A stretch of DNA of 64,000 nucleotides. Origin: Nemertoderma westbladi (Eukaryota > Animalia > Xenacoelomorpha). The position numbers and the translations under genes were made by a program. Positions 5,710 to 36,903 of the stretch are shown in pieces. Numbering within the stretch: the stretch's first letter is position 1; the number at the start of each line of letters is the position of its first letter. The stretch is taken from positions 1 to 64,000 of the forward strand of contig JAUCBJ010005734.1 in assembly GCA_032718475.1 (NCBI GenBank), written 5' to 3'. The notes under the pieces are model-generated. The model searched no databases. It had not been told where the DNA came from and saw only the letters and a list, made by a program, of their open reading frames with translations.

Positions 5710-5725
5710 CACGGTCGGGGTTATA

Positions 5726-13400: not shown

Positions 13401-14571
13401 CCCCAAAAAATGTATTCAGGGAAGTTTTGACGTAAAATGGACACCATTGTTCGATTCGGTATACCAAAAAACCTTTATAAACGAGAAACTGGCTGACAAC
13501 ATCAATCCTTTCAAAAGTTGCAAATTTTAGCTTGAAAAGTGCTGACATGTGTTTTTTACACCCCCTATAACTCGACAACTAACAGAGCTATAAAGTTCTC
13601 GTTTTTTTTGTGAGATTCAGAGATAAATTTTAGGAAAACTCAGGAAATTTCAGCTTACTGCGATCAGTGCTTCTGCGCAGATCAGTAGATAAACTTAAGG
13701 GGGGGGGGGGTGGATTCAACCCCCCCCCCCCCCCCCCCCCCCAGTCCTGTAACGGTTAATATCAAATAATAAAATTCACGGGAATAAATTATAAATTCAT
13801 ATCCTCTCATGAATTTAATAAATTGTCATTTTATACAATTTATAAACATTCCCAAAATTCCGTTAATTAATAGATCATGGGAGCGGAGATTCACCCTATT
13901 AAGTATATCAGTGTGAGAGTATCTCCAGTGTATAGTCAATAGCCGATAAAATTCATAAAATCATGTATAAAGGGAATATTGACAATTAAAGAGTCACTAT
14001 TAAATAGCATCCCAGATCTGTATGCATGAGAAATACCCTAATTCTACCGCTAGCTTTGCATAATGTCACCATAGTAACAACCACGCTAGAATTAGAAGTG
14101 AGTTAAAAGAACAATAGAAAGCTTGCCCCATTGAATAGCATGCGTAATAAATAGCACTTGCTAGTATCTAGGGATACATAATAATAACGTGGCATTCTGG
14201 AAGGCATCTGACTAACGGACAAATGGCCCTAATTTGTACAAATTGTGACAGGAATGTGGAATTTGTGTATTTATAGGTGAATATTGCTACTAAAGTGTGT
14301 TTACAGCGAGTAAGCGAGTCGCAATTGTGAAAATTACCTTACATCTGTATCAAGTACCTCCAGTATATTCAAACCTTTGGGACGGACAGTGGAGTGACTC
14401 GCGCTGGTTATTGTTGTCGTTGTGTGGCTACTACATTGGCGAGTGGCACAGCGACGACAGTACATCAGCGCTGAGGATCTCAGGGATGTCCGGGGGCAGA
14501 GAGGGGAAGGCAGCGACGCCCGCTAGCCTTATTATTATTAACTATAATATCGATAAACTCATATAGCAGCT

Positions 14572-15190: not shown

Positions 15191-16689
15191 GATCAAGCCG
15201 CTCAAGTTTGCCCTTAGCAGTGCGGCCGAGCGGTCGCCCCGGCAGACGCGACACCTATCGATCATTTCAGAATTCACGACGGACCTGCAGCACGTCTCCG
15301 GCAAGGACAACATGGTCGCAGACGCTCTCTCCCGCTCGGGGGACCCACCATGCTCCATCGACATGCCGCGCTCCGTCGCCGCCCTTCTCTCTCCCGCCGT
15401 GGAATTCGCTGCGCTCGCCGCAGCGCAACGGACGTCCGCCGAGATCGTCGCCTACCGCACCACCGTCACTGGCCTCCGCTTCGCCGACATCCCGTTCGGC
15501 GACACCACTGTGCTCTGCGACATCTCCACCGGCAAGGAGCAACCCGTAGTGCCCATCGAATGGCAGGGCCGCATCTTCGAAACCATCCACGGGCTGTCAC
15601 ACCCGGGACCCCGCCCCACCATCTGGGCGATCTCCTCCAAGTTCGTTTGGCACAACTTGAAGCGAGACGTCAAACGTCGCTGCGACGAATGCCTTGCTTG
15701 CCAGTCGTCCAAGGTCGCCTGTCACGTTCGGGCTCCCCTCGTCAGCCGTGCCGCCCCCGACAACCGCTTTGAGAACCTCCACGTCGACTTGGTCGGCCCC
15801 CTCCCATTGTCCGAAGGGAACACATACCTCTTCACTGTCATCGACCGGTTCAGCCGCTGGCCGGAGGCGCTCCCACTCGCCGACGCCACAACCGCCACGT
15901 GCGCACGTGCACTCCCACTCCCGAAACGGCTGGATCAGCCGTTTCGGGGTGCCCACACCCATCACCTCCGATCGCGGCCCCCAGTTCACTTCGCACCTCT
16001 GGACGGAGTTGAACAAGCTGCAGGCGAATGGGATGGTCGAGCGGCTGCACCGCCAGCTCAAGGCCGCACTGAAGGCCCGACTCACTGGACCCGGGTGGAT
16101 GGACGAGCTTCCCCTGGTGCTGCTGGGCATCCGCACTTCGTGGAAGGAAGACCCAGAGTGCTCTCTGGCGGACATAGTTTACGGCACCAAGCTGCACGTT
16201 CCCGGCGAGTTCGTCGAGCCCGCCACATCCGCCGTTTCACCCCCGTCGTCGTCCTTCGTCGCCGACCTCCGCGACCGCCTCCGCTCGTCCGCCCTGCCGC
16301 CGGCGTATCATGGCTCACCGACATCCACCTCTCTGCCGCCGCAGTTGACTACGGCCTCTCACGTTTTCGTGCGCCGTGGCACCCGCTGCGGCCCCCTCGA
16401 CCGCCCGTACGTTGGCCCGTACCCGGTTGTCTCCCGCCACGCGAAGCACTTCGTGGTGGACCTCGACAGCCGCGAGAACTCCGTCTCCATCGACCGGCTC
16501 AAGATCGCCCACATACCAATGGCTGCATCAGGTCTACTTCCCCCTGTCACGTACGCCCACGCCGCAGCTTCGCCACCTTCGCCCCAGCCCATCGCGTCAT
16601 CGTCCACGCCGCCGCTGATCCCGGACTTGGCCAATTTCTCCCAGTTCGGCCGCCGCCTCCGCCCACCGGCCACCTTCTCTCCGGGCTGA
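15191..16689 (+). pseudogene. Ty3/Gypsy pol 3' half (RNase H end + integrase), frameshifted near 15920
   Basis: KPL...HVSGKDNMVADALSR, H..H/C..C zinc motif, HVDLVGP, SDRGPQF, ANGMVER, GPY motif; GC-rich. Confidence 0.92.
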
Positions 16690-16717
16690 TCGCGTTTGCA
16701 CGCTGGAGGGGGGGTTA

Positions 16718-16859
16718 TGTAGGGTAGAGACTTCGGCGGGATATTCAAACTCTCTATCTACCTTTGACTCAGATAACATTTCACTTTACCGGTACAGTTC
16801 TCTTGTTATCATTTCGCAAACAACTCTACTATAAGATTATACTATCGTTGACCGCTACA
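16718..16859 (+). repeat. Gypsy 3' LTR (142 bp)
   Basis: PPT GGAGGGGGGG immediately upstream; termini TGTAG...CTACA. Confidence 0.8.
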
Positions 16860-17066
16860 CACGCACTGTTAGTAGGCCAACTTTCAGATAAGACTCAAGG
16901 ATTATATAGTTTCTCTAGTCGCTTCCTACTGTCTGTATAGAATTATATTCTCATAAATGCCGTGGATTTTCAAAATTTTATTTTGTTCGAATTAACTTTG
17001 CTATAAAGATTACATTAAGTCCTCATTTGTATTTACTATATCTATTTGTACGATGATTATTCGAGT

Positions 17067-17150
17067 GGTTCAGTAGCTCAGTCGGTAAAGCGTTGGAAAT
17101 TATATGTAGTAGGTATCGAGTTCGAATCCTAGTAGGTGCGAATTATTTTT
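17067..17150 (+). promoter_or_regulatory. tRNA-derived Pol III A/B-box cassette inside 5' LTR
   Basis: A box TAGCTCAGTCGG (17074-85), B box GTTCGAATCC (17120-29), T5 run (17146-50). The acceptor stem does not pair. Confidence 0.7.
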
Positions 17151-17216
17151 GTGCTAAGTTTCAACTCATTTAAATTAACCGCTACAAATTAAATTGCATT
17201 TGCTCGAAGTAGATTA

Positions 17217-17365
17217 ACCAATGGGATTGCAGTTATTAGATAGTAACCAATGTCGTGCAAGTTATATATTCGCTGGACCAATAGTTATCTTTAAAAACCT
17301 ATTAGAACTCATAGAACAATCGAGAATTTTCTCGATTGATTGCAGCACAAATTTGCTATAAAAGG
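17217..17365 (+). promoter_or_regulatory. Candidate Pol II promoter in LTR (3 CCAAT boxes ~30 bp apart + TATA)
   Basis: ACCAAT at ~17217, 17246 and 17277; GCTATAAAAGG at ~17355-65. Confidence 0.55.
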
Positions 17366-18832
17366 TGCGATTTGTTCATTAGTTATTAGTATACATCATT
17401 ATCATTCTTGCTTATCCTAATATATAACTTTACTAGATTATCACTTATTAGTTATCTATTAGTTTCTTGTTACGTTTACGTATATCTTTTGTAATAAAAG
17501 TTAGAAATACTTGTTACATCTGCCCTTTTCCTATCATGTTTTACCACGGTGAACTTAACTGAGGGACAGGATGGCAGGCTAAACATCGGGCCACAGCGAT
17601 GAACGGGAACATCTGAGGAATGTAGAAGGAGACAACCCGCAATATCATTCTTAGTTATTCGCCCATCGCCTGAAAGGTTAGACAGCGTTCAATGCCTCGC
17701 TACCTAAGTGTAAGACCAAAGATCGAAGGTAGAGGTAGTGACACGCTGTGCGCTAAAATTTACATGTAGGGACTGTACTGTCTTAATTCAGAGAAAAAAC
17801 CCGCAGTAGACCTTCATATTCCTACGGGGGGAGAGGAGATCAGGCAGAGATACTAGTACACAGATAGGACGCAGGCACACCGGTACAAGGCATACACATT
17901 GGTAGGGTGCAGCAAACTGTACGCCTAACTCTTGCTAAGTATAGGTGCGTCTGTGACTGTTTGTAGTACAACGGTGTCCATTGCATTTGAACTTGTAGGC
18001 TAGAAGGGTTACTGTGTTTTACCTGAATTAGGATTGTACCGTTCAGGCGGTAGGGCAGTTTACAACTAGGCGCAAATAAATTGAGGCTATTTAGGGATAC
18101 TAACATCTACCGTGTCCCCACCAACACGTACCCATCTAGGCAACCAAAATTCTAGATAAGAACACCAGGCTAGCTATTAGTAACAGTACGCCTACTGTAG
18201 TAAACTAACACATTTCTTCTTAGTATTAGGGACCTGGTAAATTAAATTGCCGAATTCTGGGCGTAGTATTAACCTTATGCCTGAATTTGAGTCCTGGAAA
18301 TACACAAAAGGGGAAGGAGCCTTATCATTCGTGAGTATTGGACCTACAAGTTACAAAATTAGAATATTTGTAAAATGCACACCGGACCCAGTAATTATAT
18401 ATGTGAAGGAGCAAAACTGACTTTGACTGTTTAGAATCAAGACACGCGCGCGTTAGAAATTATTTACACCTCAAAATATATAAAATTAACTTTTGTCCGT
18501 ACTGCGCTTTGCCCGCTAGTTAGACATCTCTGCACCTAGCTAGCATCTCTCTATCCCAACCATATAAATCACACCGCGGCAAAGTATACGAGCCCCTTAG
18601 TCCATCAGTGAGTCAGCCTGATTTTAGGATTCGCTGCGCGGGATTTTGTTTTATCGAAGTTTGTCCGTTCGTAGACTGTTTTCTGCCTCACCGGTTATAA
18701 GAGACAAAATACTGCAATATATATTCGCTTACTTTGAGTTTACTGTTTTGGTGAGAAGGTCGGATTTATGATTTGATTCACAAACTTTACAGTAAGATAT
18801 TGCAGGGTATTTTGTTACTGTCTCTTCGCATA

Positions 18833-18918
18833 GTAGGAATATGTATTATTTAACATATTTCCTAGAGAAGTAGGAATATGGTATTATTTAACATATTTCC
18901 TAAAATAGTAGGAATATG
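18833..18918 (+). promoter_or_regulatory. Non-tRNA primer-binding region: three GTAGGAATATG copies abutting the 5' LTR
   Basis: Copies at 18833, 18870 and 18908; exact complement CATATTCCTAC at 17815-17825; no TGG-type tRNA PBS. Confidence 0.7.
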
Positions 18919-19715
18919 TTTTACTGAACTACGGTTCGGTAGGACTAAAGTTATTTGAAAATTTTGTATTTTGAGGTAAAAGTTTATATTTGATTAGCTA
19001 AGTGCTAATTTTTTGAAATAAAATTTTGATTTGAACCGCGTGTAAAATATTTTGGAATTGAATACTGGTGTTTAAAAGGGTTTAAATACCATATTGTACC
19101 GGTACAAAATTTTCGTAAAAGTAAAACCTAACTCTTTTGTTTTTCAGGATTCAGAGCTCATTTCTAGACTGTAACGAGAGCAAGACCGTGTTTAGCAAGT
19201 TTGGGAGATAGATAACTCAACAACTTTGGTTGGGAAAATCGCACTTCGTCCGCAACGCTGGAAACGGAAAGGTTCACGTCCGGTTTGTATCTGGGAATCT
19301 GTTTTTCTGGAGAATCATTGGAGGGGGTGAGTTCGAAAAGTTGCATAAATAAGTTAGGCATTACCGTATTAGTTAAAATTATTGTGGGTTCCACTGTCTC
19401 AAGTATTTATGCATTCCGTATGATTTCTTTGTTTATTGCTGAATTAGTCCGTATTATTGTATTTAATCTACCTTTTGATAACGTATATCGTTATCTGATT
19501 TATTTGTCGTAAAATTGGCCGGTAGGCTAATTTTATTATATACTTACTCCGTGACATTTATTTGCATAAAATTGGCCGCTAGGCTAATTTTATCCATCTG
19601 CTATAAAATCGGCCGGTAGGCTAATTTTATATGACTGTAATTAATACCGTTTTGATATAAAATACGGTAAGTTTGATATTTTGACACTCACTTTACTTGA
19701 CTTACAACTACCGAA

Positions 19716-22700
19716 ATGAGTGACAAACAAGACTATACGAAGAATACACAAACCGACTATGACTCATGCGACGCGGATAAGTCAGAAGCGGAAGAACCAC
19801 AGGGGAAGACTCGTGAGCCTACCGAACCTACACCGTGCGCGTCACCAGTACATCCAACGGGAGTACCGGATGCCGTAGTATGAGGCGACGGCAGGACCGA
19901 CGATTTCCTAATGTTCCCGCAACCTAGACATAGAGAAACGGACATGGTAAGTTCAGTAGGAAGCCAGGAGAGTGTAGTTAGAAGCGTCGGAGGATACATG
20001 GCGCATATTACCAGGAGTATTGGAGAGGGCCAACGCATATTAGACGAGTTAACCGCTCCGATGTCTCGGTTCGAGTTCTACACCCTCCAGGTTAGAGTAC
20101 AGAGTAAAGTACATAAGTCTGTAGATAATCTAATTGGTCTACAAGATCTAGCTAGACAGAGACAGGATATGGACACACAGTTTAGAATCCTCGAGAAATT
20201 AATGATCGCTAGGGAGAAACTGATTCAGTTTAAGACAACCGTTAGACAGATACAACAGGAACAAGCGGACCAGTTATTAGGTGAGTCGATTTCCGACGAG
20301 TTATTACAGCCCGAGGAAGAACAACTGTACCGACTGGATGGACAATTGAAACATCTGACGGATCACTTACGTATGTGCGGCGAAGACGTCGGCGATTTGG
20401 AAACCGTGCCGGAATATACGAGGGAAATTTCACCCGTACAAATCGAATCGGCACCGGGAATACTGGACCAGTCATTGGTGAGTATTCGCAGCGAAATTGG
20501 CGAGGTAAGTATAGTGACGTCAGAAATTTCTCGACAGCAACAACAGTACTATAGACAACAACGAGAAATTGAGGAACAAACTCAACTGTTAACGGTACAA
20601 GCAGCGGTAGATGAAGAGAAGCTACGCGTTGCGAATGTTGCGAGAATCTCTCATCTGCAAGAACAAGCCGAACTGGAAGCAGCTGAGATGGAAAGGTTAG
20701 AGCTAGAAATAGCACAGCGAACAGCGGCAGCTGAGTTAGCGCAACAAGCGGCAGCAGCTGAGTTGGAACGACAAATGGCAGCAGCTGAGTTGGAACGACA
20801 AGCAGCAGCAGCTGATTTAGAGCGACGAATTACGAGCAGCAGAATTGGAAGAACACAAGCGAGTTTCGGAAGCGAGAGCCGAGTTGAAAAAACGACAGAT
20901 AAAGGCTCAATCAGCTATACGACTAGCGGAGTTCGAGGCGCAACAACAACAGATGGAACAACGCGAGAAGGAAGTTAAACTTCATTTCGAACTCGAGAAG
21001 AAGGCGAGAGAATTAGCCAACGCTAAGGAAGATCTGGATCTACAAGCCCGCGATCGATCGATGAGATCTCGAGACGGACACGATCTAGACCGGTTGGAGG
21101 TAAGACATCGTCAAATTCAGGAACGAATGAAGGAAGGAAGCGTAGGAGCACCTGAGCGAGAACGGGAATTGGTTAAAGACTTATGTCAATGATTTCCGCA
21201 AGTAACTCCGATGTTCGCACTAATTACGAATAAAGGACCTGTTTCGATTGCTGGTAGTAGCAGTATATCTCCTATACACGATGCAACGGAACACAGGTAT
21301 GTTATTCCGGACAAGTTTGTACCGCCGAGAGCAATGTCATCGCCTATTCCGAGAGTTAAGGTAAGTAACCCACCGATTACCGATCGTAGTAGGTATTAGT
21401 CAGACCCACATTAATGACGACTAAACAGGTGAGTCAAACATCGACACCTAAACCTGTGACACACTACACAAACCACTTGATATTCAGGCCTTCAAGGCTG
21501 TTAGACTCAAACATTACGCGACCACGAATTCAGTTTACATCGCAATCTACGACTTCGAGGAAGACCTGCGAGCCTACCGAACAACGAAGACCAGTGGATA
21601 CGCGACCGCTTAACCAGTTTACATCGCAATCTACGACTTCGAGGAAGACCTGCGAGCCTACCGAACAACGAAGACCAGTGGATACGCGACCGCTTAACCA
21701 GTTTACATCGCAATCTACGACTTCGAGGAAGACCTGCGAGCCTACCGAATGACGGAAACCAGTAGACGATGTTCCGAAGCGGAATGTTAGAATTCGGACA
21801 ACCCAACGGACGCAAGCACGTCGGCCACCGTATCCAGGTGATAGTAGTACTTCGAGTGAATCGGATTACCCGGAACGCGAAGTGTTTAGAACAGGAGCGG
21901 CCGATGAATACAAATGCGAGCATTCAGACAATTCCTTTATAGACAATCCTCCACAAAATACACCAACACAGAAAGCGTTACAACCAATGGACGCTATCAG
22001 TACACAACAGTTCGCCGACATTCTGCGACCAGTTGTTAACAAGTTGGCTCAGATCGAGGAATGCTTGGAGGAAGTTCAAACAGATAGTTCGCGAAACACC
22101 GAATTCGAACACAATAGAAACCCGAAGGAACCTCAAAGAGTGATACCTTCAAGAAACACCTCGTATCAAAGAAAAGCGCCAAGACAGGAGAACATCAACT
22201 TGATTGCCAACCAAGGACGCGAAACTTTGAATGTAGCCGAGGAGATAGCCAAATTCGCAGCCAGACAAGGACTACAGATGCAACAACCACCTAAGTTTTC
22301 CGGTAATTCTAAACATTGGCACACGTTCATAGACTACATCGAATCTCAAATTGCGGCGTGCGCTTTTACCTCAAGGGAAAAGTTCAACTATTTGCTTCAA
22401 ACTTTGACGGGAGAACCAAAACGCTTAGCGGAGACTTCCGTTGGAGTACCAGATGCCTTCGAGTTAGCATACGATCGCTTAACTTCAATCTACGGAGGTA
22501 CAGTCAGTATGGCCAAGTCAGTGATAGAGGAACTCTGTAAGGGGGGGGGCTATTACTAAACCCGTCGACTTACTGAAGTTAGCTGACGAAATAAAAAACG
22601 CTATCACTACATTGAGATCTATTGGACAACTCGGTTACGGGAACACCCCTACAGTCCTATTAAAGATCATAGGAAGACTCCACCATCGACTTTGTCGGGA

Positions 22701-25700
22701 GTGGAGGAAGATCGAATACCAGCGGGAAGAACGGGGTGGATTCTTGAAACTGGAAGATGTGTACTTATTAATATCCAGGGAAGCGGTAGTGGAGACACGA
22801 TCCAACTACACTGACCAACACATCGTAGCAGAAGGAATCACCTTACCATCCTCAAACCGACAAAAACCCCAGACAACATCCACCAAGACGGCCACTTACG
22901 CCACATCGACAGAAACCCGACAATTTTCGGACGGTAGCCGCACCTATTGGGATCAAACAGACCAGACAACAACTGAGTGCAGATTGCCGGTTGCCAATAC
23001 TGCGAGCAGCTAGGCAAGCGGCACACCACTCACAAGTTAAGAGGTTGTCGGCTGTTTCGTGAGTTAAACTCGGAAGAACGACGGCTGCAGATACGGCCAT
23101 TGGACTCTTGTTGGCGGTGTACTCAACACGGACACGTCCGCAATGATTGTCCAAATACAGACACTTGTCCATCCTGTGGACGCAACCACGACGGTTTGCT
23201 CCATACGGACAGCCATACGCCGACCAAACGCTTCACTAGGGAACACCCAGAAGCAGCAGCGAAATGTAATACGGCCTACAAGAATCGTGAATCGAGAACG
23301 ACTCCAACGTTCGTGACGCATATTCGGGATTGTTTCCCAGAGCAATCCGGGTCTTCTGACGAAGAAACCGAGGACGACGACATATACTCAGATGGAGACG
23401 AACAACCATCGATCGCGCTTCTGACGACTGACCAACTAAAAGGTTTCAGCGTAATTCCTATTAAGATTACTGGCACCAAAGGGAGCAAAAGGATCTACGC
23501 TATTCTAGATTCAGCCTCATCTCACAGCTATGTGGATGAGAAGGTAGCTGATGTCGTGACGGATCTCCGACAAGGTAAGAACGTCAGTTACACCGTAAGT
23601 AGTATGCATGGACAACGTGCAATACCAGTGACACGAGTTAAGTTAAACTTAGACACTCTTCTTCCGAAATCGCAACACAGCGAAAAGGAGAGGTCTTTGT
23701 TACCCTTTAAGGATTTGACTTTTGCGGCCACCAAGGACTTTAGTAACCTACTGGGTCCAGTGCCGGAACAATCCCTAGAGGACCGTAAGTATTTCAGACA
23801 CCTTGGTGTACCTGAATGTCCTGTCAACTATAGATCAGTAGCAATGCTGATCGGGACGGATCAATTCAATTTACATCAAGTGTGGGAAACCAGACCATCG
23901 GTAGTCGTAGCAGGAAATGCATACGCCTGTCGAACTCCGATAGGTTGGTATACTCGAGCGCCTGTGCGCACACTAGATATAAGCGATGAGGAAGACGATG
24001 TACAAAGTACATGTAGTTTATTAACTACAACTTCAACTCATTCCTTTTCACACGACAAGGACTATACTACACTACGTTCGACAAAACACAACAACGTTAC
24101 AAGTACGACGTCTGTAGCTAATACGATAAGTCACAAAGAGCAGCCAATCCACCAGGTTAGTATAAAGATTGAGAAGGAGCGGAGTCAGGCAGAGGTTCCA
24201 TCAACGATAGATGATAACGCCGGAAGGCTTGTGAGTCTACCTCAACCAATAACTTCAACAACGCCCATCGATGAAGACGCGTTAAGAAATCATCAAGTGG
24301 AACAAGCTGCACTAGACAAGGAATTAACAGAGAAAACTATCAGGTGGTTAGAACAAGACACAGCCGAACCTGGTAGTTACGAACCATGTATGTCGGAACA
24401 AGAGAAACAATCTTTAAAGATCATGGAAGATACTATCCGCCAGACGAAAGACGGACATTATGAGGTAGGGATGCTATGGCGTAACCAACGTCCTAAACTT
24501 GCAAATAACTATCCGCTAGCCTTACGACGCTTACACTCAATACGACAACGTTTATTGAAGGACGAGAAAGCCCATCTGCAGTACAATACTCAGATGGAGA
24601 CGTATTTGACGAAAGGATACGCTATCAGAATGACAAACCCAGAGATTGTGACTGACCAGACATACTACTTGCCACATCACTACGTGAGACACCCCGATAA
24701 ACCAGACAAAGTACGTGTAGTCAATGACTGCGCGGCTCTGTTTGAGGGAATGTCTCTCAATAGTGAGTTGATGGATGGACCAAACATGAATAATTATCTC
24801 ATGGGGGTGATTATGCGCTTCCGTCAGCGCCAAGTAGCATTTACTTGTGACGTAGAAGCGATGTTTCACCAAGTGCGAGCGTTAGAGCGAGACAGAGACA
24901 GTTTGAGGTTCCTCTGGTACCCGGATGGAGACTTAAGTCAACCACCGGCGACTTACCAAATGCAAGTTCGCGTTTTCGGTGCCAGGGACAGTCCAAACTG
25001 CACTATGTACGCCCTAAAACAAACCGCTAGGGATCAGAAACATAAATATGACCCAGAGGTAATCCAAATCGTAGAACGAGACTTTTATGTGGACGATGGA
25101 TTACAAAGTTGTGACACAGTAGAACGTGCTATAACAGTAGCACATCAATTACGGGACTGTTTAGCAGGCGGAGGTTTTAACCTCACTAAGTTTGCCTCAA
25201 ACAGCGCCGAATTAGTAAATTCATTCGAAACGACTGAACGTGGGGGTGGGGACATTGACTTAGAGTTCGAACCACTGCCGACGACCAAGGTGTTGGGACT
25301 ATTTTGGGACCCGAACACAGACAACTTTCGAGTGAAAGTAAAACTGGACGCTGAAGGGGATTCTCTGACAAAGAGGTCTTGCTTGTCGAAACTAAGCAGA
25401 CTGTTCGATCCATTAGGTTTCATCAGCCCAATAATACTGCAAGCAAGAATATATATGCGCAGTATTTGGAAAGATGGACTGACATGGGACGAACCGATCT
25501 CATCCGAACAAGTGGACTTATGGAAGACTTGGGAGGCACAATTATCTTCGCTAGAGGATTATTCCATACTAGATATAGTCCGTTTTTACAGACGACATTT
25601 CCTGACAACTTAGAATTACATTGTTTTTCCGACGCCAGTGACAACGGCTTTGGTGTGACAGCGTATTTGCGCAGACAAGTAGACTCAGATGAGTTTGATG

Positions 25701-28354
25701 TATCGCTCATTACTTCTAAGGCTAAAACAATGCCTACTAAGTATATGACGACACCACGCGCTGAGCTACAAGCCGCAACTCTGTCAACGACAATTGTAAA
25801 CCTCATACAGACTGAACTACAGTCAAGTTTACAGATATTTTATTGGACTGACGCGACGTTAGTTTTATTTTATATAAACAACGACACACTTGAATTCAAG
25901 ACATTCGTAGCTAACCGTCGTGCAGAAATTCTAGACCGTTCAATAAAGGAAGATTGGCGACATTGTCCCGGACCACAAAATCCAGCTGATATTGCGTCGC
26001 GAGGAATGATGCCTGAGGAATTCTGTAAACCGGAAAACAAGAAATTTTGGCAACACGGACCACAATTCTTACAAAGAGCAACACAACATCGGGCCACTTT
26101 ACGATAACAAGTTTAATACTATTCCTAAGGACGCCGAAATTAAAAAACCAAAGAAAGGTAAAGCAAAGAAAAAGACAACGGCGAAACTTAAGAAGAAACC
26201 AAAGGCGAAATGGAAAAATATAACTTACAAAGTTAAGGCAGGAAGACTTGCGAGCCTTTCTCAACCAGACGTATCGCCAGACAGTCAACCAGACACGTTA
26301 CCAGACGGTCAACTAGACATTTTGCCAGACATGTCACTAGACGTTTCGCCGGATGTTCCGCGAAACATTTTACCAGACATTTCACAAGATGTTCTACCAG
26401 ACATTAGTAACGTAGCGACACATAGTAAAGCCGCAGTTTCCCTATTGGAGCGGCCTTCTATTGACAAACTACCAAACTTGACACCCTTGAGTAACCATAA
26501 GTACAGTGAAACCTCATGTATTACAGATGTGGGTAGTACCTACGCTAATGTAAATACAGGTGTTACTTTATGCTCAAGAGACATACCAACCTTACAACCT
26601 ACGGTGAGACCTGGGATTAATATCGGCAGAAAAACAAATTTACCGAAACCCAGCGATCCCATAGAGTTAAAACCACCATTACGAATCGACACACAAAGTA
26701 ATGACAATCAAGGTAAGAAGACAAAGAAGGACAAATTACTTGTAGACCCGGACGGATCAACAGTCAACAAGGGAATACTTACCGGCGGACTTGTGGGCCC
26801 ATCTAGTAAAACAAAACCTTCCAAATTCTCCATTGACTTACCTGATGACGTCACAAATACTTACGTCGACCGTATTGTAAATTTGACAGATTCTTGGACA
26901 AACGCATGCCGAAAATTAGCGTGGATTGTACGTTTTGTACAATACGTTAAAGGCAAACGCAACTTTACACGTCGACTCACATTGACTGAGATTGACAGAT
27001 GTGAAATTAAATTAATTCGCATTACCAATTGCGATATTTTGCACGCGAATTCACATCTATAAGTCAAGGTCAACCAATCAAGTCGTCACCAATACTGAGT
27101 TGGAGTCCGATAATTTATAATGGCTTAATTTGTCATAAATCTCGGCTTCAAAACATTGACTTTAATACTGATTTTAGATACCCGATAATAATACCACAAC
27201 ATCACGAATTACAACGTGCAATGATACTGGACGCACATTTACATCTAAAACACGCTGGAAGACACCACTGTCTTTCCTACTTACGTACAAGATTTGTATT
27301 AATTAGACCCAGTAAAGCGCTAAGTTCAGTGACACGTATGTGTCTTATTTGTAAAAAGGTACATTCTAGAATAAGTACCCAAGAAATGAGTGAACTTCCA
27401 CAAGCACGACTACAGGCATTCAGACCACCCTTCACAGAGACTGGAATTGACTGCTTTGGTCCCATACATACGAAACGTGGACGTATACTAGTAAAACGCT
27501 GGGGACTGATTTTCACATGCATGTCCAGTAGGGCAGTTCATCTTTCCACCAATGCCTTTATACTAGCATTGCGGCGATTTATCGCTAGACGCGGACTAGT
27601 GAAATGCTTGTACTCAGACCAAGGTACAAACTTCGTTGGTGCTCGAAATGAAATTGCTAGAGCCTTTAAGAAATTAGATCATGATCAAATCTCAAACGAA
27701 CTACGTCCTTACAAGATTGTTTGGAAGTTTAATCCTCCAGACAGTCCATGGAGAGGCGGAGTCTGGGAGAGATTGATTAGATCTATAAAAACAGCCATGG
27801 CAAAAGTAATTCCTGTAAACCACATCTTGACAGACAACCAACTGACGACATTGTTTGTTGAAATCGAGGCAATACTAAATACTAGACCAATAGTATTAGT
27901 ACCCGATGACAAACAATCCCAGTTTGCTTTAACACCGGCACACCTGCTGATGCAGGCACCGACTACATTAACGCCTATTTCTATTCCAATAGAAGGCGAT
28001 AGCTACGGTAGAAAAGCGTGGAAAATCACGCAACTACTAGCCAACAAATTCTGGGAAATATGGCAAAACCATTATTTGCCCTCTATTTCTGCCAGAACAA
28101 CTTGGTACAACAAAACTCGCGCTTTAAGAGCGGGAGATCATGTGCTGTTAGCAGAAGTGAATCTAAAAAGACGCTTCTGGATAACAGGTGTAATTTTAGA
28201 CACACATCCATCTATGGATGGAGTGACAAGGACTGTGACTGTACGGACAATTGACGGTCGTACAGTAGACAGACCGACTTAAAGTCTCGTACTTCTGGAA
28301 GAGACGCGAAACAAGTCTGGAGATTACAAGTCTCCAACTAATGTTAGTAAATAG
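19716..28354 (+). pseudogene. Element B gag-pol (coiled-coil Gag, CCHC knuckles, protease, RT, RNase H, integrase) with several stops and frameshifts
   Basis: PPKFSG..W..F, CWRC..GH, ILDSAS, YVDD, FSDAS, NPADIASRG, TGIDCFGP, SDQGTNF, GGVWER. Confidence 0.93.
21531..21770 (+). repeat. 84-bp in-frame tandem repeat in Gag (~2.8 copies)
   Basis: QFTSQSTTSRKTCEPTE repeated three times. Confidence 0.92.
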
Positions 28355-29016
28355 TAAGGAGTTTACAAATAGATTTCCACGTACCTGTACACTGTAGTAA
28401 ACACAGCGGTAGAATTCCATTGTCTTTATATGTGAACATTAAGGGTAGTACCCTTATGTGTCACATAGGAGCGGGATTTGTAGGTATAAGAAATGGAATT
28501 CTACTTGGAACTCACAATATTGAGACATTTTCAAAATTTTAGAAAATCCATTTGGATTTGAAAAAATTTTAAAATTTTCTCCAGTGAATAGATTTCAGGG
28601 TACAGTCGGGTGGAACTTAAAATTAGAGAAACAAGAGAACGGAAGACTCGCGAGCCTTTCTTAAATTTTAATAAAATTTACACGGTCTTGTTTCAATAAG
28701 TTACGTCAAATAATAGACTTCCCTATATTTATTACTAACTCTTGATTGCTTATTTTCTGATAATAGTTTGGGATCAAAAAGTGAGTATTTTAGACTCACA
28801 GCCAGTTTAGCCCAAATTCGTTTTTATTTCGGCAAAAAATTTTAGATAAGAAGCAGCGTGTCATTAAAGAAACCCTAGATCTTAGGCTATGGGTAGGAGG
28901 TTAGAGCATTGTCGAGCCAAAAGGGCAGACGAAAACTCTCACATCTCCTCACAACTAACAATAAACTCTGTTGTATTCCCTCTAGTAGCAATGATTATGT
29001 AACTACACTTCTAATA

Positions 29017-32000
29017 ATGGCGAAAGGGATACATGGAGAGACGAGATGGGGATATGATATCCAAGAGGAAGCAGCAGCGCCATTCGAACGATTTGGAGCT
29101 AAGGATTACACCATATTTGGAATAAAGGATTTATCAGAAAGTACAGCGAAACTCGCAAAGACCAAATATGACTCGAACGTATTAAAGAGAAGGCAAAATG
29201 CGTTAAATGAAAGAATCGAAAGTTTACGCAAAACCTTCAATGAACTTTACCCGTACGACGGTTTATGTGATACGGGAGATATTAGCGAAGATCCCGACAC
29301 CGAAATTAGTCGTTTGTATCATACTATGCAATACCTGAAGGCGCACGAACCTATGCCCGCGGTACGCGATGAATTCGATGGAATGCATCTTTACAGACGA
29401 ACTTGAGGGGACGATAGAGAAACAAAGGAAGCATTTTCAGTTTATAAACTTTATTATCAATGTGGTGCTTGTATGCGCGAACAACGAAATGCGATTCCGA
29501 TGCGTTTGAATAAGGAAAATCCCGAACCGATATTGGCGAGGTGTTCGAACCATCAACAACTACGCTACCAGGAAGGAGGGTATCCTTCATCGAATCCATA
29601 TCATTCATTCGCTATGACTGGACCAAAGGCGGGAGAAATTGTCGTTTACCCACCTAAGGTTGTTGAACCCGATGTATTTGAACTTACGCTGGACGAGGCG
29701 ACTCAGTCAACCCGCGAAAAGAAAGAAGCTCTTAGCCTATACAGAGCCTACAAGGCTTTCGAGAAAGGTGAGATGGAAGAATGGGGCGGAAGACTCGCGA
29801 GCCTACCTTACCATTGGACGTCACACGATCAAACTTCAGCTAAGGAGATGACACCGGAAGTTTTCGAGAGTATAAACTTTGCTCAAAACGTTATTCAGAG
29901 ACTACAGATTGCATCCCCGGAAAGGACAAGAGAAATGCAACCGTATAGTACTTCAACTACGAAACCATTGAGTACGACACTCAATTTCCCTATTAGTATA
30001 CCAGTTCGACAAGATACAACGTATGAAATACCTATTGTGGATCATCCGGAAATCATTTCGAACTTAGAGTTTCTTCCTGCAGTTGTTCTAAGCGATATGG
30101 TTAAGATATATGATTTACGTAGACATATTACACAAAAGGTCGTGCATAATGTCCGCCTCATATTCAAGACTTTAGGGAACTGGATAGAGCTGGCGCTGAT
30201 ATAGCTCCGAGTAACCTGAAAGGATATTTAACCAAAACAATTCGCTTATGGATTGGAACAGGAACCTTTGAGTCGGATACAGATATCGCTGCGGACTGGC
30301 AAGGTAAAGTCATTCGTTTCGAGGACGAGAAAGACATAGAGAAGATTTGGCAACCTTCGGAAGAATTATTGGATGAATGGAATAGGACGTTTAGATCTTT
30401 TCAGGAAAACGGTTACATGTTTTATGATAACGAGGGCGGCAGCCATCAGCAGAGTCTAACCTCCAAGACTATACAAATTAGAGCGGCAGACGGAGTTTTG
30501 CATGTTTTCAGTAGACAAAGGAGCGACAAGCGAATGCCGATACCTCCAGGAACTACCAAGCGGCACCATTTCATCACTAATATAGTAAAGAAAATGGACC
30601 AAGCTTGCAATATCGATGCTAGAATGTTACCAAAGATGGTGAGAAATATGATTTTAGATAAAACTGTTGTAAAGATTGGATCAGGAGTAAGAGAGGACTT
30701 AATTAGCGACTTCGCCGGCATGTCGGACAGTGACGACCAATTACCGACACCTTACGTCGACACTCGACCTCTTATACTGTGGTCTATAGAATAAGGATAC
30801 TTCCGTGAGTATGATACTCAGAAAACCGGAACTGGATACATTTCCTACTTGATGTTTAATTGGGATTACAAGGAAAGTAAAAGAACAAAGTATATCGAAA
30901 CGTATGGAGAAGGTGATACTCCAGATATAAATGAGTTTGAATCACAGCTCAAATGGAGAGGATGCGTATATTGGGCTATTACTTCACCTCCAAGAGCGGT
31001 ACTACAATATTATTTAGCGATAGAGTCATCAGTGAATGTTTGCTTAGTCGCCGACATTGTGTCTCGGACTCTTAAAAGACATCCACTTTGCCTCGGAGAA
31101 GATCATACATTCTATGCGGAAGGGAGAATTCATACCGATGTGTTTAGACGGTTTCTCGAACCCTTCTACAATTCCGACGCTCAGTGTAATGCCTTCACTC
31201 GAGCAGGATTTAGTATATTTCGAGACGTGTATCTTCGCTGTGCGGGATCTCTTATCGAAAGACCATCTACGTTTACATTGTTACCCTATGAAGGAGAACG
31301 TATCGTGGAGCTTACCGACGAATCACGGCACACGCGCGCGCCTATCGGTCACTTAGGTGATGATTTCGAAGTAACGACGACCATCGATGATCCTTTAGAG
31401 GAACTTCTTGAGATTGAAAGGAACCTCCCGAAGAAATCTCAGACGGAGATTCGACAATTAGAAGCAACAGATGCTGTAGTTTGCATACAACCTTCTGAAA
31501 CATACCAACCTATCGACCCAGACGATTACGACTATAGTGTGGGAGGAAGCGCTCGACCCATTGGCGATCTTATATATGAGCGAGTGTGGTACCCTGCTAA
31601 TACGATATGTGGTAAATGTGGCGTCGCTGGCCATCATTCGACAAAGTGCAGTGGAAAGCACATTACTACAACTCAACTAATCTGTGGATGGTGTGGAGAT
31701 CAAGGGTCCCATACATTTTATACTTGCTGGAGATTTATGGCTCAATGCACATACTGTAATATAAAGGGACACCGAGCATCTGAATGTCAATTGAGAGACA
31801 TACCTTACGAACACGAATCTGTAAAACTCGTGCGAAAACTATTTGATGATTGGGAAGATTTGGCTGATGAACATGTATCGGCGCAAAGAAGACGGTTCCC
31901 GATGAGAGCGCATCTTGGATTTTGGGCGGTAAATCCTCAAACTATGATGTCGGAAGGATATATCTCCGCTATGCCACAATATGACGAACTCATCGAGGTA

Positions 32001-32738
32001 GTTGATATTTTGCCTCACGATAGTGGATTCCGAGTTGTGCGCGAATGTTTGTTACAGATACACCCTGACAATAAGAATACATGGAATTTCCAGAAAGTCG
32101 TTAATCGTATCACGTATGGTGAATTTGATCGTTTCTGAATGGAAAAGCGGAACAAGGGAGCTTGGTTAACCGTCGCATGGGCGTACCGAGCCGCGTTCTA
32201 CCATAAACGTATACGAGCGAGCGTATTCGAGGAAGAGAAGGTCCTAGAGGCGACCAACATACCAGCTACTCCAGTCGCGCCGTCTGCACGTCACCCTCGG
32301 GAGGACGGACAGCACAGGATCATACGGGTTCAGAAAGTGGGCCAACAATTAAAGAAAACTATCAATGTTGAAGAACGAAGGGGATACGAACCGACTATTC
32401 GAATTACTCAGGATACGGTTTCGCTTCCCAGAGAACCGCAAGGAGGATCGGGACATATACCAGCTGATCAAAAGGGGGCGCAAGCTTCTCTTGGGTCTGC
32501 GTCGTCCGCTTCTCGCGCGTTCCCAGACGTTTTACCAGCGGTAGATACAACCGATCGGTCACGAGGAATTGGACGAGGATTTGGGATAACTAAGAGACGA
32601 ATATGTGAGACAATGGTCGTACCATCTCCCAACGTCCAAAGTAAACCAGTGGCTCGCCCCACAAGTCCCATATCACGAGCTAAATCACCGATACGCAGTT
32701 TTCGAGGACGTGGCAGGGCTCGATCCGCTAAGCGTTAA
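29017..32738 (+). pseudogene. Element B ORF3: novel N-terminal domain + DEDDy 3'-5' exonuclease + 3 CCHC knuckles + basic tail (3 stops, 1 frameshift)
   Basis: Reading through stops: WQGKVIRFED, YMFYDNEG (ExoI), IQIRAADG, LPKMVRNMILDKTVVKIGSGVREDL (ExoII), PYVDT, W...QYYLAIE (ExoIII-like); CGKC..GHHSTKC, CGWC...HTFYTC, CTYC..GHRASEC. Confidence 0.8.
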
Positions 32739-33620
32739 AGCGGGAAGGAAGGAGTGGACGGAAGACTCGTGAGCCTTTCTTATGAATTGTTTGTTTTATG
32801 TATTATTTTATGCATTGTTTAGGTAAATTGAATTGTTTATGTAAATTGAATTGTTTATGTAAATTGAATTGTTTGTGTAATTTGTATTGTTTAAAATTTA
32901 TATTGCTCTAAATTTATGCAATTTATATTGTTCTAAATTTATGCAATTCATATTATTCTAAATTTATGGAATTTACATTGTTCTAAACTTATGTATTTGT
33001 ATTGTTCCAATTTGAAATTTAGAAAGTTTATATTTAGAAGGAATTTATATTTGAAAGATTTATATTTCATATTTGAGATGTAAAAGGAGTTTATATTATT
33101 CTAAACTTATGCAGTATTATTCTAAACTTATGCAATTTAGTAAAGATTTATTTAGAAAGTGCTATATTTGTAGTCATTCCAAACTTATGCAATTTATTGT
33201 TTTGAATATTATGCAATTTATATTTTATAAAGAAGCAGTATTTGTATTCACAGTAAATAGAAGGCAAGAGCAGACGGAAGACTTGTGAGCCTTTCTTGTG
33301 ATTTATTTGAAATTATCCGAACTTATGCAATTTGTTTTATATTTAAGTAGTATTAGTATTTGTGATTGTTTGAATTTATGCAATATTTGAGATGCAATAG
33401 ATTTATTTTGGTGAATTTAATTTAGATTTATATTGTACTTACTTAATAAAGCCTTAAATACGTAAAGTTTGAATTTGTAATTATTTTGTATCGAATTATT
33501 ATGTAGAGGTATTATTGTTGAGATTTAATTTGTAAATATGTAAGTACGTCCCAAGTATTCCATAATTTGATTAGTATTGGTGAAAACCGTATATTTTATG
33601 CACGATAATATCCTGTTTTC

Positions 33621-33629
33621 ATGGAGCGG
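33621..33629 (+). promoter_or_regulatory. Polypurine-tract equivalent of element B (ATGGAGCGG)
   Basis: Directly abuts the 3' LTR start TATAGA. Confidence 0.75.
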
Positions 33630-35543
33630 TATAGAATTATATTCTCATAAATGCCGTGGATTTTCAAAATTTTATTTTGTTCGAATTAACTTTGCTATAA
33701 AGATTACATTAAGTCCTCATTTGTATTTACTATATCTATTTGTACGATGATTATTCAAGTGGTTCAGTAGCTCAGTCAGTAAAGCGTTGGAAATTATATG
33801 TAGTAGGTATCGAGTTCGAATCCTAGTAGGTGCGAATTATTTTTGTGCTAAGTTTCAACTCATTTAAATTAACCGCTACAAATTAAATTGCATTTGCTCG
33901 AAGTAGATTAACCAATGGGATTGCAGTTATTAGATAGTAACCAATGTCGTGCAAGTTATATATTCGCTGGACCAATAGTTATCTTTAAAAACCTATTAGA
34001 ACTCATAGAACAATCGAGAATTTTCTCGATTGATTGCAGCACAAATTTGCTATAAAAGGTGCGATTTGTTCATTAGTTATTAGTATACATCATTATCATT
34101 CTTGCTTATCCTAATCTATAACTTTACTAGATTATCACTTATTAGTTATCTATTAGTTTCTTGTTACGTTTACGTATATCTTTTGTAATAAAAGTTAGAA
34201 ATACTTGTTACATCTGCCCTTTTCCTATCATGTTTTACCACGGTGAACTTAACTGAGGGACAGGATGGCAGGCTAAACATCGGGCCACAGTGATGAACGG
34301 GAACATCTGAGGAATGTAGAAGGAGACAACCCGCAATATCATTCCTAGTTATTCACCCATCGCCTGAAAGGTTAGACAGCGTTCAATGCCTCGCTACCTA
34401 AGTGTAAGACCAAAGATCGAAGGTAGAGGTAGTGACACGCTGTGCGCTAAAATTTACATCTAGGGACCGTACTGTCTTAATTCAGAGAAAAAACCCGCAG
34501 TAGACCTTCATATTCCTACGGGGGGAGAGGAGATCAGGCAGAGATACTAGTACACAGATAGGACGCAGGCACACCGGTACAAGGCATACACATTGGTAGG
34601 GTGCAGCAAACTGTATGCCTAACTCTTGCTAAGTATAGGTGCGTCTGTGACTGTTTGTAGTACAACGGTGTCCATTGCATTTGAACTTGTAGGCTAGAAG
34701 GGTTACTGTGTTTTACCTGAATTAGGATTGTACCGTTCAGGCGGTAGGGCAGTTTACAACTAGGCGCAAATAAATTGAGGCTATTTAGGGATACTAACAT
34801 CTACCGTGTCCCCGCCAACATTCTGTTAGGAAGTTGCCGTACCCATCTAGGCAACCAAAATTCTAGATAAGAACACCAGGCTAGCTATTAGTAACAGTAC
34901 GCCTACTGTAGTAAACTAACACATTTCTTCTTAGTATTAGGGACCTGGTAAATTAAATTGCCGAATTCTGGGCGTAGTATTAACCTTATGCCTGAATTTG
35001 AGTCCTGGAAATACACAAAAGGGGAAGGAGCCTTATCATTCGTGAGTATTGGACCTACAAGTTACAAAATTAGAATATTTGTAAAATGCACACCGGACCC
35101 AGTAATTATATATGTGAAGGAGCAAAACTGACTTTGACTGTTTAGAATCAAGACACGCGCGCGTTAGAAATTATTTACACCTCAAAATATATAAAATTAA
35201 CTTTTGTCCATACTGCGCTTTGCCCGCTAGTTAGACATCTCTGCACCTAGCTAGCATCTCTCTATCCTAACCATATAAATCACACCGCGGCAAAGTATAC
35301 GAGCCCCTTAGTCCATCAGTGAGTCAGCCTGATTTTAGGATTCGCTGCGCGGGATTTTGTTTTATCGAAGTTTGTCCGTTCGTAGACTGTTTTCTGCCTC
35401 ACCGGTTATAAGAGACAAAATACTGCAATATATATTCGCTTACTTAGAGTTTACTGTTTTGGTGAGAAGGTCGGATTTATGATTTGATTCACAAACTTTA
35501 CAGTAAGATATTGCAGGGTATTTTGTTACTGTCTCTTCGCATA
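33630..35543 (+). repeat. 3' LTR of element B (1914 bp)
   Basis: Copy of the 5' LTR plus 17 extra bp (34821-34837); followed by GTCTG. Confidence 0.95.
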
Positions 35544-36903
35544 GTCTGACTGTCCTACATATTCTGGACCACTGTATTTTACTAGTCAGCTAGTCTGCTA
35601 GTACAAAATACCTACTACAGTACTAGGTACTGGTAACTACATATCCATAGTCTGGACCAATACTGGTACTTATCAGCTTATTGCATATTGTTCTAAGGAC
35701 GTTAGTCTGTTATTGTCTGATGGTGAAAATTCGCCCTGTCAGCAAATCCACTAAGAAGATTTAATTGCTTCTTGCTGCTTTTTCCCAAACGAGAAGCCTG
35801 TTATGATTATACCTTGTATAACGGTATAAGCGAATCGTTTGAAGGTAACTTGCAAGTTCAAATATTGGATCGCTTTGTTACATAGTTTGTATATAGGCCT
35901 ACAGGCCTACCATACTACAACTGTACTGGCATATGTAAGTTCTACTTTTCTACTGTCCTAAAGTAAGTACAACCATTTTAAAATTTATAAAGGAAAACGG
36001 AAAGAGGAGAGTTGTGAAGTTGTGAGAGAGCAAATAATAAGATAAGCCTATATTTAATATTACGATATCATTAAGTCATTAGGCTATAATCCTGTAATTT
36101 TATTATATAAATTCGAATTAGTGCTGCACCGGTACTGCTGTAGTGGCAATATGCATTGCATAGTGTTGCCTTAAATTAAACATCTGACATTATAGTGGTA
36201 GGCACGTGGATCCAGACCCAAATACTGGAATACCACTGGCTGATAATTTTACCCATAATTAATTACTACCGGTATACGGTGTACGGGAAACTTATGATAC
36301 GGTACTTTAATTAATACCCGGCTAGTATTATTAACACTAATATTCCTAGTTGAAGTAGCTTCATTTGGTCATATTGACATTACATGTATTGTACTGTTAT
36401 AGGCTATTTCTGTATTACAACCTTTTAGTAGGCCTGTTGGTAGGATATATAGAAATCATTGTATATATTTCAGATAAGTTTATATATATTTGAGTACCGG
36501 TATAACCTTTAGTACACTAGTACTGTAGTAGGCATATGATTTGTGCCCCGCTGTCCTGTATATACAAAGAAGCAGATAATACAATACAGATACCGGTATT
36601 TAAACTTTCTATAATCAGATAATAGGCTAGACCTATTTACTAAATTATCAGTTAAATTATCATAAATTAAATATTTTATAAACTCTATAGAATCAATAGA
36701 CCTCTGTACTGTAACTTGTTTATTTAAACACTATAAGTCACTGTTTATAGTCTGATAGTTATTAGGCCTAACACTTGACAGGACTGGTATTACCATTCAA
36801 GTGTACCTTTATTTATCTTTAAAAGCCTATAGGCACTGGCGCTATACTGTATAGTTTATCAGTACCCAGGTAGTATATAGGTACGTTTATTTCTCAATTA
36901 AAT

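Follow-up and report, generated by a model that had tools for sequence, protein, structure and literature searches.

What, if anything, does a retrotransposon gain from repeating one short near-palindrome along its own body? The question is raised by element B, which lies in a window of 64,000 nucleotides from Nemertoderma westbladi (positions 1 to 64,000 of contig JAUCBJ010005734.1, forward strand). Element B is a BEL/Pao LTR retrotransposon, unusually long at 18.6 kb and equipped with an orphan reading frame, ORF3; within it lie ten copies of a 20-nt near-palindrome, all on the sense strand. The answer depends on whether the repetition is selected, on which nucleic acid would be read, and on what might read it.

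Element B and its motif sites

Element B has a Pao-type pol and a gag in the order gag-PR-RT-RH-IN, all features lying on the + strand between direct long terminal repeats that are 98.4% identical (5' LTR at about 16932..18834, ~1.9 kb; 3' LTR at 33629..35545). Inspection of the ends led to no unambiguous assignment of TG...CA termini, a target-site duplication or a primer-binding site. The gag region (19716..23200) carries DUF1759 and three Cys/His knuckle-like motifs at ~22990-23200, and is interrupted in this copy by stops and frameshifts; pol (22977..28282), with protease, RT, RNase H and integrase of BEL/Pao type, is frameshifted here. It matches Peptidase_A17 (E 2.6e-16 and 7.9e-19) and DUF5641 (E 1.3e-19); its closest relatives are BEL-type (E down to 6e-110), at no more than 46% identity. 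ORF3 (29017..32738; ~1,240 codons) is broken into pieces in this copy. The genomic RNA would be oversized, at about 16.7 kb. Candidate splice signals were picked by eye in the leader and in the region before ORF3.

The preliminary description had placed the pattern GGAAGAC(TC/CT/TT)G(C/T)GAGCCT(TT/AC)C at nine coordinates, in gag, pol, ORF3 and non-coding spacers, and had not seen it in the LTRs or in elements A and C. All nine copies are present on the + strand; a tenth, missed there, was added at 24222; there are no copies in either LTR, in elements A and C or elsewhere in the window. Three copies (21559, 21643 and 21727) lie one per unit in a single 84-nt tandem repeat, so that the ten copies amount to eight independent sites. 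Site 1 (19804..19823; loop CGTG, end TACC) lies at the gag N-terminus and reads G-K-T-R-E-P-T; site 2 (21559..21746) is the tandem repeat in gag, its copies having the loop TGCG, a C at position 8 and the peptide R-K-T-C-E-P-T, in a frame inferred from the next ORF. Site 3 (24222..24241; loop TGTG) falls in the protease-RT linker (G-R-L-V-S-L-P), and site 4 (26241..26260; loop TGCG, end TTTC) in the RNase H-integrase linker (G-R-L-A-S-L-S). Site 5 (28641..28660; CGCG, TTTC) is non-coding, in the pol-ORF3 spacer; site 6 (29788..29807; CGCG, TACC) is within ORF3 and reads G-R-L-A-S-L-P; site 7 (32760..32779; CGTG, TTTC) begins 22 nt 3' of the ORF3 stop; and site 8 (33276..33295; TGTG, TTTC) lies in the AT-rich 3' UTR. 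Site 3, GGAAGGCTTGTGAGTCTACC, has G6/T15 instead of A6/C15; it can be read as inverted, at a cost of four changes against two.

Five sites are thus coding and three non-coding. As two reading frames are used and three sites encode nothing, the motif is not a protein constraint. The sites spread over 13.5 kb, roughly one per 2 kb, with a spacing more even than random at borderline significance (P 0.045-0.056).

Specificity, turnover and the case for selection

The pattern is not one that chance supplies. It matches 12 times in the window (the ten copies, two of which also match on the - strand); in 100 shuffles the mean was 0.00 and the maximum 0. A de novo search with shuffling, run to allow for post-hoc discovery, found nine dispersed clusters in the internal region as it stands (counting a half-site-like extra), vs a maximum of three in 40 shuffles. 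In a profile scan the true copies score 29.8-36.1 bits and the top non-motif site 12.1. Half-sites beyond the motif number 21 in the window (raw count), on both strands and with no evident pattern.

Nor is the motif general to the superfamily: it occurs in 0/79 other BEL/Pao loci (625 kb; top profile score 11.5 bits), at 37-46% RT identity and mostly of 5-11 kb, in which a sparse motif could escape. Some three-copy cluster turned up in 10/79 of these loci and a cluster of at least four copies in 3/79. The latter three were set aside as duplicated segments, judged by offsets; of six three-copy clusters that were read, five had copies sharing flanks and one was chance-like. Traces of the motif peptides were found in 0/120 related proteins, and Rfam covariance models gave no match at E<=1 across 16500-36000. 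The 20-nt pattern had no match in viral contigs and a stricter 22-nt pattern none in metagenome contigs, collections that possibly exclude the host. Other known kinds of signal (ADAR or m6A site, ribozyme, or a binding site of p53, Smad or BANP type) would fit in part, judged by consensus.

Among family copies, the sites behave in two ways. Contigs with loose ends at 32739 and apparently without site 7 number 11 in X1, 7 in X2 and 7 in X3, and motif copies of the 3' UTR appear to have been gained and lost between family copies; at the 84-nt repeat region in gag, other copies skip 91 or 175 nt. Site 6, by comparison, is kept: among variants listed at a frequency of at least 1%, none of ten falls in the 20-nt motif and all ten in the surrounding 34 nt (Fisher p 0.009, from one covered site with non-independent variants; 0.30 in the worst case, as differences near contig ends are apparently hidden). 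A divergent haplotype, pieced together from the depths of the records plus a single loose end, has at most two differences in the motif vs nine in the adjacent 24 nt. The whole-element comparison with family copies covers the 40 of 1,699 variants that were listed. The expectation that motif positions recur in other copies therefore holds for coding site 6 and apparently fails in the 3' UTR. Taken with the absence of the motif elsewhere in the window and among the 79 loci, retention at site 6 and turnover in the 3' UTR make the motif look selected.

One way to understand the repetition nevertheless dispenses with function: a palindrome spread by template switching of the reverse transcriptase and homogenised by recombination. 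A little of the flanking sequence is indeed common to some sites (GAAC follows sites 1 and 2; TCAAC follows sites 3 and 4; AC precedes and TT follows sites 5, 7 and 8), the coding sites fall in low-complexity linkers, deletions bring together points close to the motif, and copies in the 3' UTR seem to be gained and lost. We consider this passive origin very improbable. The motif has sharp edges within surroundings mostly unrelated between sites: 13/20 columns are invariant across 8/8 sites, the same 13 in every context, and flanking columns within 30 nt reach at most 7/8. Its CpGs lack G-to-A changes despite symmetric mutation, site 6 is retained while its flanks diverge, and neither the 79 other BEL loci nor elements A and C hold a copy.

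Symmetry, strand and folding

In the motif, 8-bp inverted arms flank a 4-bp centre; the stem has one mismatch, A6/C15, retained in 7/8 sites. Within the centre, YGYG, T stands at position 9 in four of the eight sites and at position 11 in four, and every site has G at the mirrored positions, 12 and 10; that is, C-to-T is tolerated, G-to-A never. All eight combinations of loop and end are present, one site each, which indicates that the changes were recurrent. The asymmetry has a binomial p of 0.008 for eight events, 0.03 for six and 0.125 for four; the family's mutations as a whole show no strand bias (231 C>T against 215 G>A in X1, and five of each separating the two LTRs). Such a pattern favours a one-stranded reading, at the RNA level, with two exposed guanines. 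The 20 nt 5' of the motif are purine-rich (0.71 vs 0.545, P 5e-5, post hoc), a second strand-specific feature.

We therefore lean, tentatively, to the explanation that the motif is a dispersed, selected tag on the element's own RNA for putative Gag or ORF3 knuckles. A short, weak stem, read on RNA, would present the Y-G-Y-G loop to an element-encoded zinc-knuckle protein, either the Gag nucleocapsid or the knuckle-bearing ORF3; sites placed about every 2 kb would mark the long genomic RNA lengthwise, for assembly and packaging; new sites would be born by short-patch copying or tandem duplication and then retained. HIV-1 NC favours unpaired guanines in loops, e.g. UG and GXG (PMC4100767, in part). 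The guanines of YGYG fit this zinc-knuckle preference, and knuckles in both gag and ORF3 lend the RNA tag support. The shared orientation of the sites lends less, being expected from copying alone; and should the acceptor candidate near 28767 prove genuine, three of the eight sites would also be in spliced ORF3 mRNA, which would blunt packaging selectivity.

The chief rival explanation, possible though on the unlikely side, locates recognition in double-stranded DNA: ORF3 or a host factor would bind the pseudo-palindrome and, in a VANC-like way, protect or activate the element. Invariant inverted arms without covariation are typical of DNA sites, and count against the RNA tag. The motif holds CpGs, in a host where 8/14 of the LTR-LTR substitutions are CpG-type transitions; the internal region of element B has a CpG o/e of 1.16 vs 0.63 in element C; and DNA readers are known that accept TG in place of methyl-CG on one strand. 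However, a symmetric DNA dimer site predicts mirror-symmetric tolerance, which is lacking at pairs 2/19, 3/18, 9/12 and 10/11; this speaks for strand-specific reading. The LTRs carry no site, no site is clearly inverted, element A, which has no such motif, retains CpG at an o/e of 0.96-1.17, and ORF3 looks RNA-directed, with knuckles, an RG tail and an exonuclease-like part.

The parallel behind this DNA explanation is the VANDAL/VANC system of Arabidopsis Mutator-like elements (PMC5735166, in part), in which a family-specific, multicopy motif is gained and lost through tandem repeats and an extra ORF is present; element B has the like, including tandem-repeat multiplication and turnover in non-coding DNA. 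VANC motifs, as that source has them, measure 8-9 bp, act as DNA sites and sit in the non-coding tandem repeats of DNA transposons, whereas the motif of element B is a 20-nt near-palindrome, mostly in single copies, coding at 5/8 sites and in a retroelement. No VANC-like family was found in ORF3.

Does the RNA tag have a structure? The preliminary description had drawn a hairpin for the best copies, GGAAG/CTTTC arms around CTCGCGAG. Those arms occur in 4/10 copies and the palindrome in 2/10, both together only at 28641 (site 5), also the one copy with a hairpin predicted in context: with 40-nt flanks, P>0.5 is reached by 1/10 sense copies vs 4/10 antisense. Isolated hairpins have energies of 0 to -4.9 kcal/mol, the RNAalifold consensus -0.55 kcal/mol, and 0/8 pairs are changed on both sides, a covariation score below all 500 shuffles. 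Several minimum-energy folds instead pair the 5' flank with the centre, though the register is not consistent among them, and this alternative was set aside. A stable hairpin is thus not borne out; the weak folding, the missing compensatory changes and the better folding of the antisense strand weigh against the RNA tag. What survives of the original proposal is a repeated signal that is element-specific and probably selected, with a strand-asymmetric tolerance that fits RNA.

Pairing between copies, rather than within them, is a further candidate, and gives the dimerisation idea of the preliminary description an extended form: the motifs would anneal as a 20-bp mismatched duplex, aligning two genomes or compacting one RNA. 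The mean pairwise duplex, at -18.7 kcal/mol vs -7.1 +/- 4.3 for random 20-mers, would weaken to -13.9 if the centre changes were mirrored, and YGYG is self-complementary when G-U is allowed; Ty1 dimerises via its PAL1/PAL2 palindromes (PMC6844567, in part). We hold such pairing decidedly unlikely, as the antisense duplex is equally good (-18.9), and the costs of single changes do not separate those seen (C9U 2.4, C11U 3.7) from those unseen (G10A 2.5, G12A 2.8). The A6/C15 mismatch persists, though one transition there would add 4-6 kcal/mol; and the Ty1 signals, in the source cited, are restricted to the 5' UTR. The first motif copy, at 19804, lies inside gag and so outside the 5' leader. The kissing loop through CTCGCGAG that was also proposed at the outset fares poorly: the strict palindrome is in 2/10 copies, and duplex energies fail to explain the changes.

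ORF3 as candidate reader, and known systems

ORF3 has three CCHC-like knuckles at ~31600-31790 and an Arg/Gly-rich tail. Its middle part has an atlas score of 0.93 to clusters bearing PF01612, a family found on 12-22% of cluster members; with atlas recognition at 2183, below 2300, this is a weak resemblance to clusters of DEDD 3'-5' exonucleases. The top cluster is mostly rotifer. By eye, against what we take to be the DEDD motifs, the catalytic motifs look altered. No homologues of ORF3 were found by word searches, full phmmer, PDB or Pfam; its C-terminal part had no atlas match and its N-terminal third no match in Pfam, the one resource searched with it. The single-sequence structure model (pLDDT 31.9) is unusable.

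The nearest likeness for ORF3 is in Vesta and Juno of bdelloid rotifers (PMC5408684, in part), which have a DEDDy exonuclease ORF3 after pol; element B differs in being BEL/Pao and in the length and three knuckles of its ORF3. The main text of that paper contains 'hairpin' 0 times and 'repeat' three times.

These features also admit an RNA-processing signal (for export of unspliced RNA from the nucleus, shielding from premature 3'-end formation or decay, or transport), whose reader would be either ORF3 or some host protein and not Gag. The candidate splice signals and the purine-rich upstream sequence would suit it. There are precedents: Cer1 genomic RNA export requires CERV, an accessory protein from spliced mRNA (PMC10309623, in part), and Egalitarian, which has a domain homologous to exonucleases, recognises stem-loops that serve as localisation signals, the I factor's among them (PMC13186709, in part). 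Yet the exonuclease likeness of ORF3 is weak and the stem has merely 8 bp with one mismatch, and we regard this role as very doubtful. A broader scheme, somewhat unlikely but worth stating, is a self-recognition system in which tags every ~2 kb and the orphan ORF3 as reader would package, export or shield the element's RNA.

Retroviral Psi belongs to the 5' leader. The HIV-1 SL2/SL3 Psi loops and Ty1 PAL1/PAL2 resemble the motif in two fixed guanines (GXG-type), self-complementarity and a knuckle-bearing Gag (PMC4100767; PMC6844567; both in part); PAL1/PAL2, however, are 5' UTR sequences of Ty1, while the motif is absent from the leader, repeats over 13.5 kb and has a much weaker stem. Dispersed packaging signals of ssRNA viruses (MS2, others and the HBV pregenome; PMC6281560, in part) are alike in being many short sequence-structure motifs with a shared recognition feature, dispersed over the coding parts of a genomic RNA; in element B the copies are on the sense strand at 8/8 sites. 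They are degenerate stem-loops read by capsid, as there described; the motif of element B is a near-invariant 20-mer in an LTR retrotransposon, and stem-loop support is lacking. The literature searched yielded no BEL/Pao packaging signal, and no family-specific dispersed tag-and-reader pair in animal LTR retrotransposons.

The known Ty1 and retroviral signals thus sit in the 5' leader, unlike the motif of element B. A near-invariant 20-mer superimposed on gag, on pol and on an orphan ORF offers a concrete way to test how the RNA or DNA of a very long retroelement is recognised as self, and it suggests what an accessory protein still to be characterised might bind. If the DNA site were the true one, element B would provide, in an animal retrotransposon, a counterpart to the anti-silencing that VANC brings about in plants.

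Anatomy and specificity of the motif

The 20-nt near-palindrome dispersed along element B, a BEL/Pao LTR retrotransposon, is present on the plus strand at all nine places where the preliminary description had put it, as a direct check of the coordinates established; position 24222 holds a tenth. Since one 84-nt tandem repeat accounts for three of the copies, one per unit, the independent sites number eight (19804, 21559, 24222, 26241, 28641, 29788, 32760 and 33276; sites 1–8), and with them the anatomy of the motif is plain. Thirteen of the 20 columns are invariant, the core being GGAAG(A/G)C(T/C)-YGYG-AG(C/T)CT(TT/AC)C, and the edge of conservation coincides with the palindrome ends: positions 1 and 20 agree in 8/8 sites, any column within 30 nt outside in at most 7/8. 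The 20 nt upstream are purine-rich (0.71 versus 0.545; P 5e-5, post hoc). Gaps between sites run from 0.5 to 3.0 kb, borderline evener than random (P 0.045–0.056).

Matches to the motif were absent from all 100 shuffles of the window, and a de novo search for dispersed motifs returned nine clusters in the real internal region versus at most three in 40 shuffles. Two sites lie in gag in one reading frame (peptide K-T-R/C-E-P-T), three in pol and ORF3 in another (G-R-L-A/V-S-L) and three in non-coding sequence; with two frames and non-coding sites involved, the constraint acts on nucleotides.

The motif had gone unnoticed in the LTRs and in elements A and C, the two other BEL/Pao elements (RT identity to element B 37–48%), and indeed none was found there or in the remaining window sequence. 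Among 79 BEL/Pao loci from metagenomes, none carried it, and none had a dispersed motif of a similar kind. Listings and abstract openings of the open-access literature mention no dispersed motif for any BEL/Pao element. The motif is real and element-specific, and probably functional.

Element A has features of its own. It starts with a 4.7-kb tandem duplication (1–7094; 1–2393 and 4702–7094 are 99.96% identical), either real or an assembly artefact; within the duplication lie a 127-nt array and an ORF of 1,121 aa without Pfam match. A 2.1-kb insertion interrupts element A at 11629–13749. Its terminal inverted repeats are G-rich, a 36-nt and a 162-nt array lie inside it, and it looks like a non-autonomous DNA transposon. 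Two homogeneous tandem arrays, in other parts of the window, lie at 46563–47319 (15-nt unit, 50 copies) and 59778–61823 (34-nt unit, 60 copies).

Folding and the asymmetric centre

The stable hairpin, and the kissing loop on its palindrome, that were first proposed find little support, because energies are low, covariation is lacking and the strict palindrome is rare. Isolated 20-mers have folding energies of 0 to −4.9 kcal/mol and the consensus one of −0.55 kcal/mol, with no compensatory changes and covariation below that of all 500 shuffles. When flanks of 40 or 80 nt are included, only the copy at 28641 forms the sense hairpin with P above 0.5; on the antisense strand, with 40-nt flanks, four of the ten copies pass that value. 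An A6/C15 mismatch is retained in seven of the eight sites (the remaining one carries G6/T15 through two synonymous changes), and the strict palindrome CTCGCGAG occurs in two of ten copies.

A second motif family occupies the element B leader, as 24-nt copies at 19511–19534, 19568–19591 and 19605–19628 whose 10-bp stem carries a loop of 4 nt. Two of them reach −10.7 kcal/mol sense versus −5.5 antisense, and two of the three contain an inverted half-site of the dispersed motif. Their place and their stability make these copies stronger candidates than the dispersed motif for a packaging or dimer signal of the classical leader type. A candidate splice donor and acceptor were seen by eye in the leader (18975–19148). 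The expected place of a primer-binding site, immediately after the 5' LTR, holds two 29–30-nt AT-rich hairpin repeats (18835–18901), and no clear primer-binding site was seen. Both LTRs contain a tRNA-like segment, at 17067–17150 in the 5' LTR and at the corresponding place in the 3' LTR. It has a B box matched at 17120, an A-box-like stretch seen by eye and a T run behind; an A-box pattern search, ARAGORN and Rfam gave no match. The segment may be a Pol III unit or derive from a SINE.

At the centre of the dispersed motif the strands differ. T stands at position 9 in four of the eight sites and at position 11 in four, and the mirrored positions, 12 and 10, are G throughout; the eight loop-by-end combinations are each seen once, so the central changes are recurrent. 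These positions are CpG, and element B decays at CpG (8 of 14 LTR–LTR substitutions). That decay is strand-symmetric: 5 A/G and 5 C/T between the LTRs; C>T 231 and G>A 215 family-wide in X1, one of the sequencing runs carrying other copies. Finding C-to-T only at the centre has p 0.008 if eight events are counted, 0.03 for six and 0.125 for four.

One explanation supposes an RNA–RNA duplex between motif copies. It accounts for YGYG by G-U pairs (mean −18.7 kcal/mol; −13.9 when the changes are mirrored). The energies of single changes and the retained A6/C15 mismatch nevertheless speak against stability as the selected trait, and the duplex is unlikely. DNA readers that take TG in place of methyl-CG on one strand are a known mechanism. 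An asymmetric reader of this kind would fit the centre but leaves the inverted arms unexplained. A DNA self-recognition site as in VANDAL/VANC is possible though doubtful. A symmetric DNA-bound protein dimer predicts tolerance of both C-to-T and G-to-A; a loop requiring two guanines, unlike such a dimer, would not tolerate both. HIV-1 nucleocapsid knuckles are described as favouring guanines that are unpaired within UG and GXG (PMC4100767).

Other family copies and turnover

Family copies came from four runs (X1–X4) and at most three samples, with very high summed contig depth. Around site 6 (29788, in ORF3), ten positions of 29740–29855 are listed as varying at ≥1%, none within the motif and the nearest at 29787 and 29810. 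In the well-covered 29771–29824, variants fall on 0/20 motif positions versus 10/34 outside (Fisher p 0.009), with eight of the ten stemming from two haplotypes and differences near contig ends apparently hidden. A divergent haplotype, which makes up 18% of depth in X2 and 37% in X4 but <1% in X1 and X3, has seven differences in 29760–29807, five of them placed at 29775–29784, and four more in 29808–29812; by deduction from the record depths and a single loose end, at most two lie inside the motif (p 0.01–0.30). Conservation of this one site of eight among family copies is suggestive, not conclusive; selection on the motif is partly shown.

The non-coding (3' UTR) copies, in contrast, appear to be gained and lost. 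Two joints in X2, with depths of 8036 and 1799, lead from 33400 via five extra letters into a motif start, for which the simplest account is a further copy missing from the window element; loose ends at 32739 continue without site 7 (32760) in 11 contigs of X1, seven of X2 and seven of X3; and an X3 joint skips 32786–33295. Constancy of position thus seems to hold for site 6, without a listed variant, and to fail in the 3' UTR.

This turnover resembles that of VANC motifs as described in PMC5735166, from which the motif differs in its mostly coding sites. In its proposed working, the closest likeness is to the dispersed packaging signals of ssRNA viruses, which by the account in PMC6281560 are stem-loops; the motif has no supported one. 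As it departs from each class in a defining trait (non-coding location; stem-loop), we assign it to neither.

Element B, ORF3 and the reading of the motif

Element B spans 18.6 kb, with LTRs of 1.9 kb that are 98.4% identical. Pfam assigns it to BEL/Pao; its closest protein relatives are at most 46% identical, the named top matches being marine invertebrates, and gag, pol and ORF3 are all broken in the window copy. ORF3 (29017–32738, about 1,240 codons) is an orphan: word searches, a full phmmer run and a search of the PDB gave no homologue. It combines an exonuclease-like middle with three CCHC-like knuckles and an RG-rich tail. A language-model search placed the middle (score 0.93; recognition 2183, weak) with clusters in which 12–22% of members carry the DEDD exonuclease family PF01612, the top cluster being mostly rotifer. 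ORF3 recalls the DEDDy ORF3 described for rotifer LTR elements (PMC5408684), and by role may be likened to CERV of Cer1 (PMC10309623) and Egalitarian (PMC13186709), as those are presented there. An ORF3 of this size and make-up is unusual for BEL/Pao and of interest by itself; before it, at 28725–28767, a candidate acceptor (branch-like sequence, pyrimidine tract, AG) was seen by eye.

Passive copying is an improbable account of the motif. Were the motif read on RNA, it might act in export or processing, which is equally improbable. We tentatively favour, and infer as to level of reading, reader and purpose, a dispersed RNA tag: an element-encoded knuckle protein would read it, and the tag would mark the oversized genomic RNA of element B for assembly and packaging.
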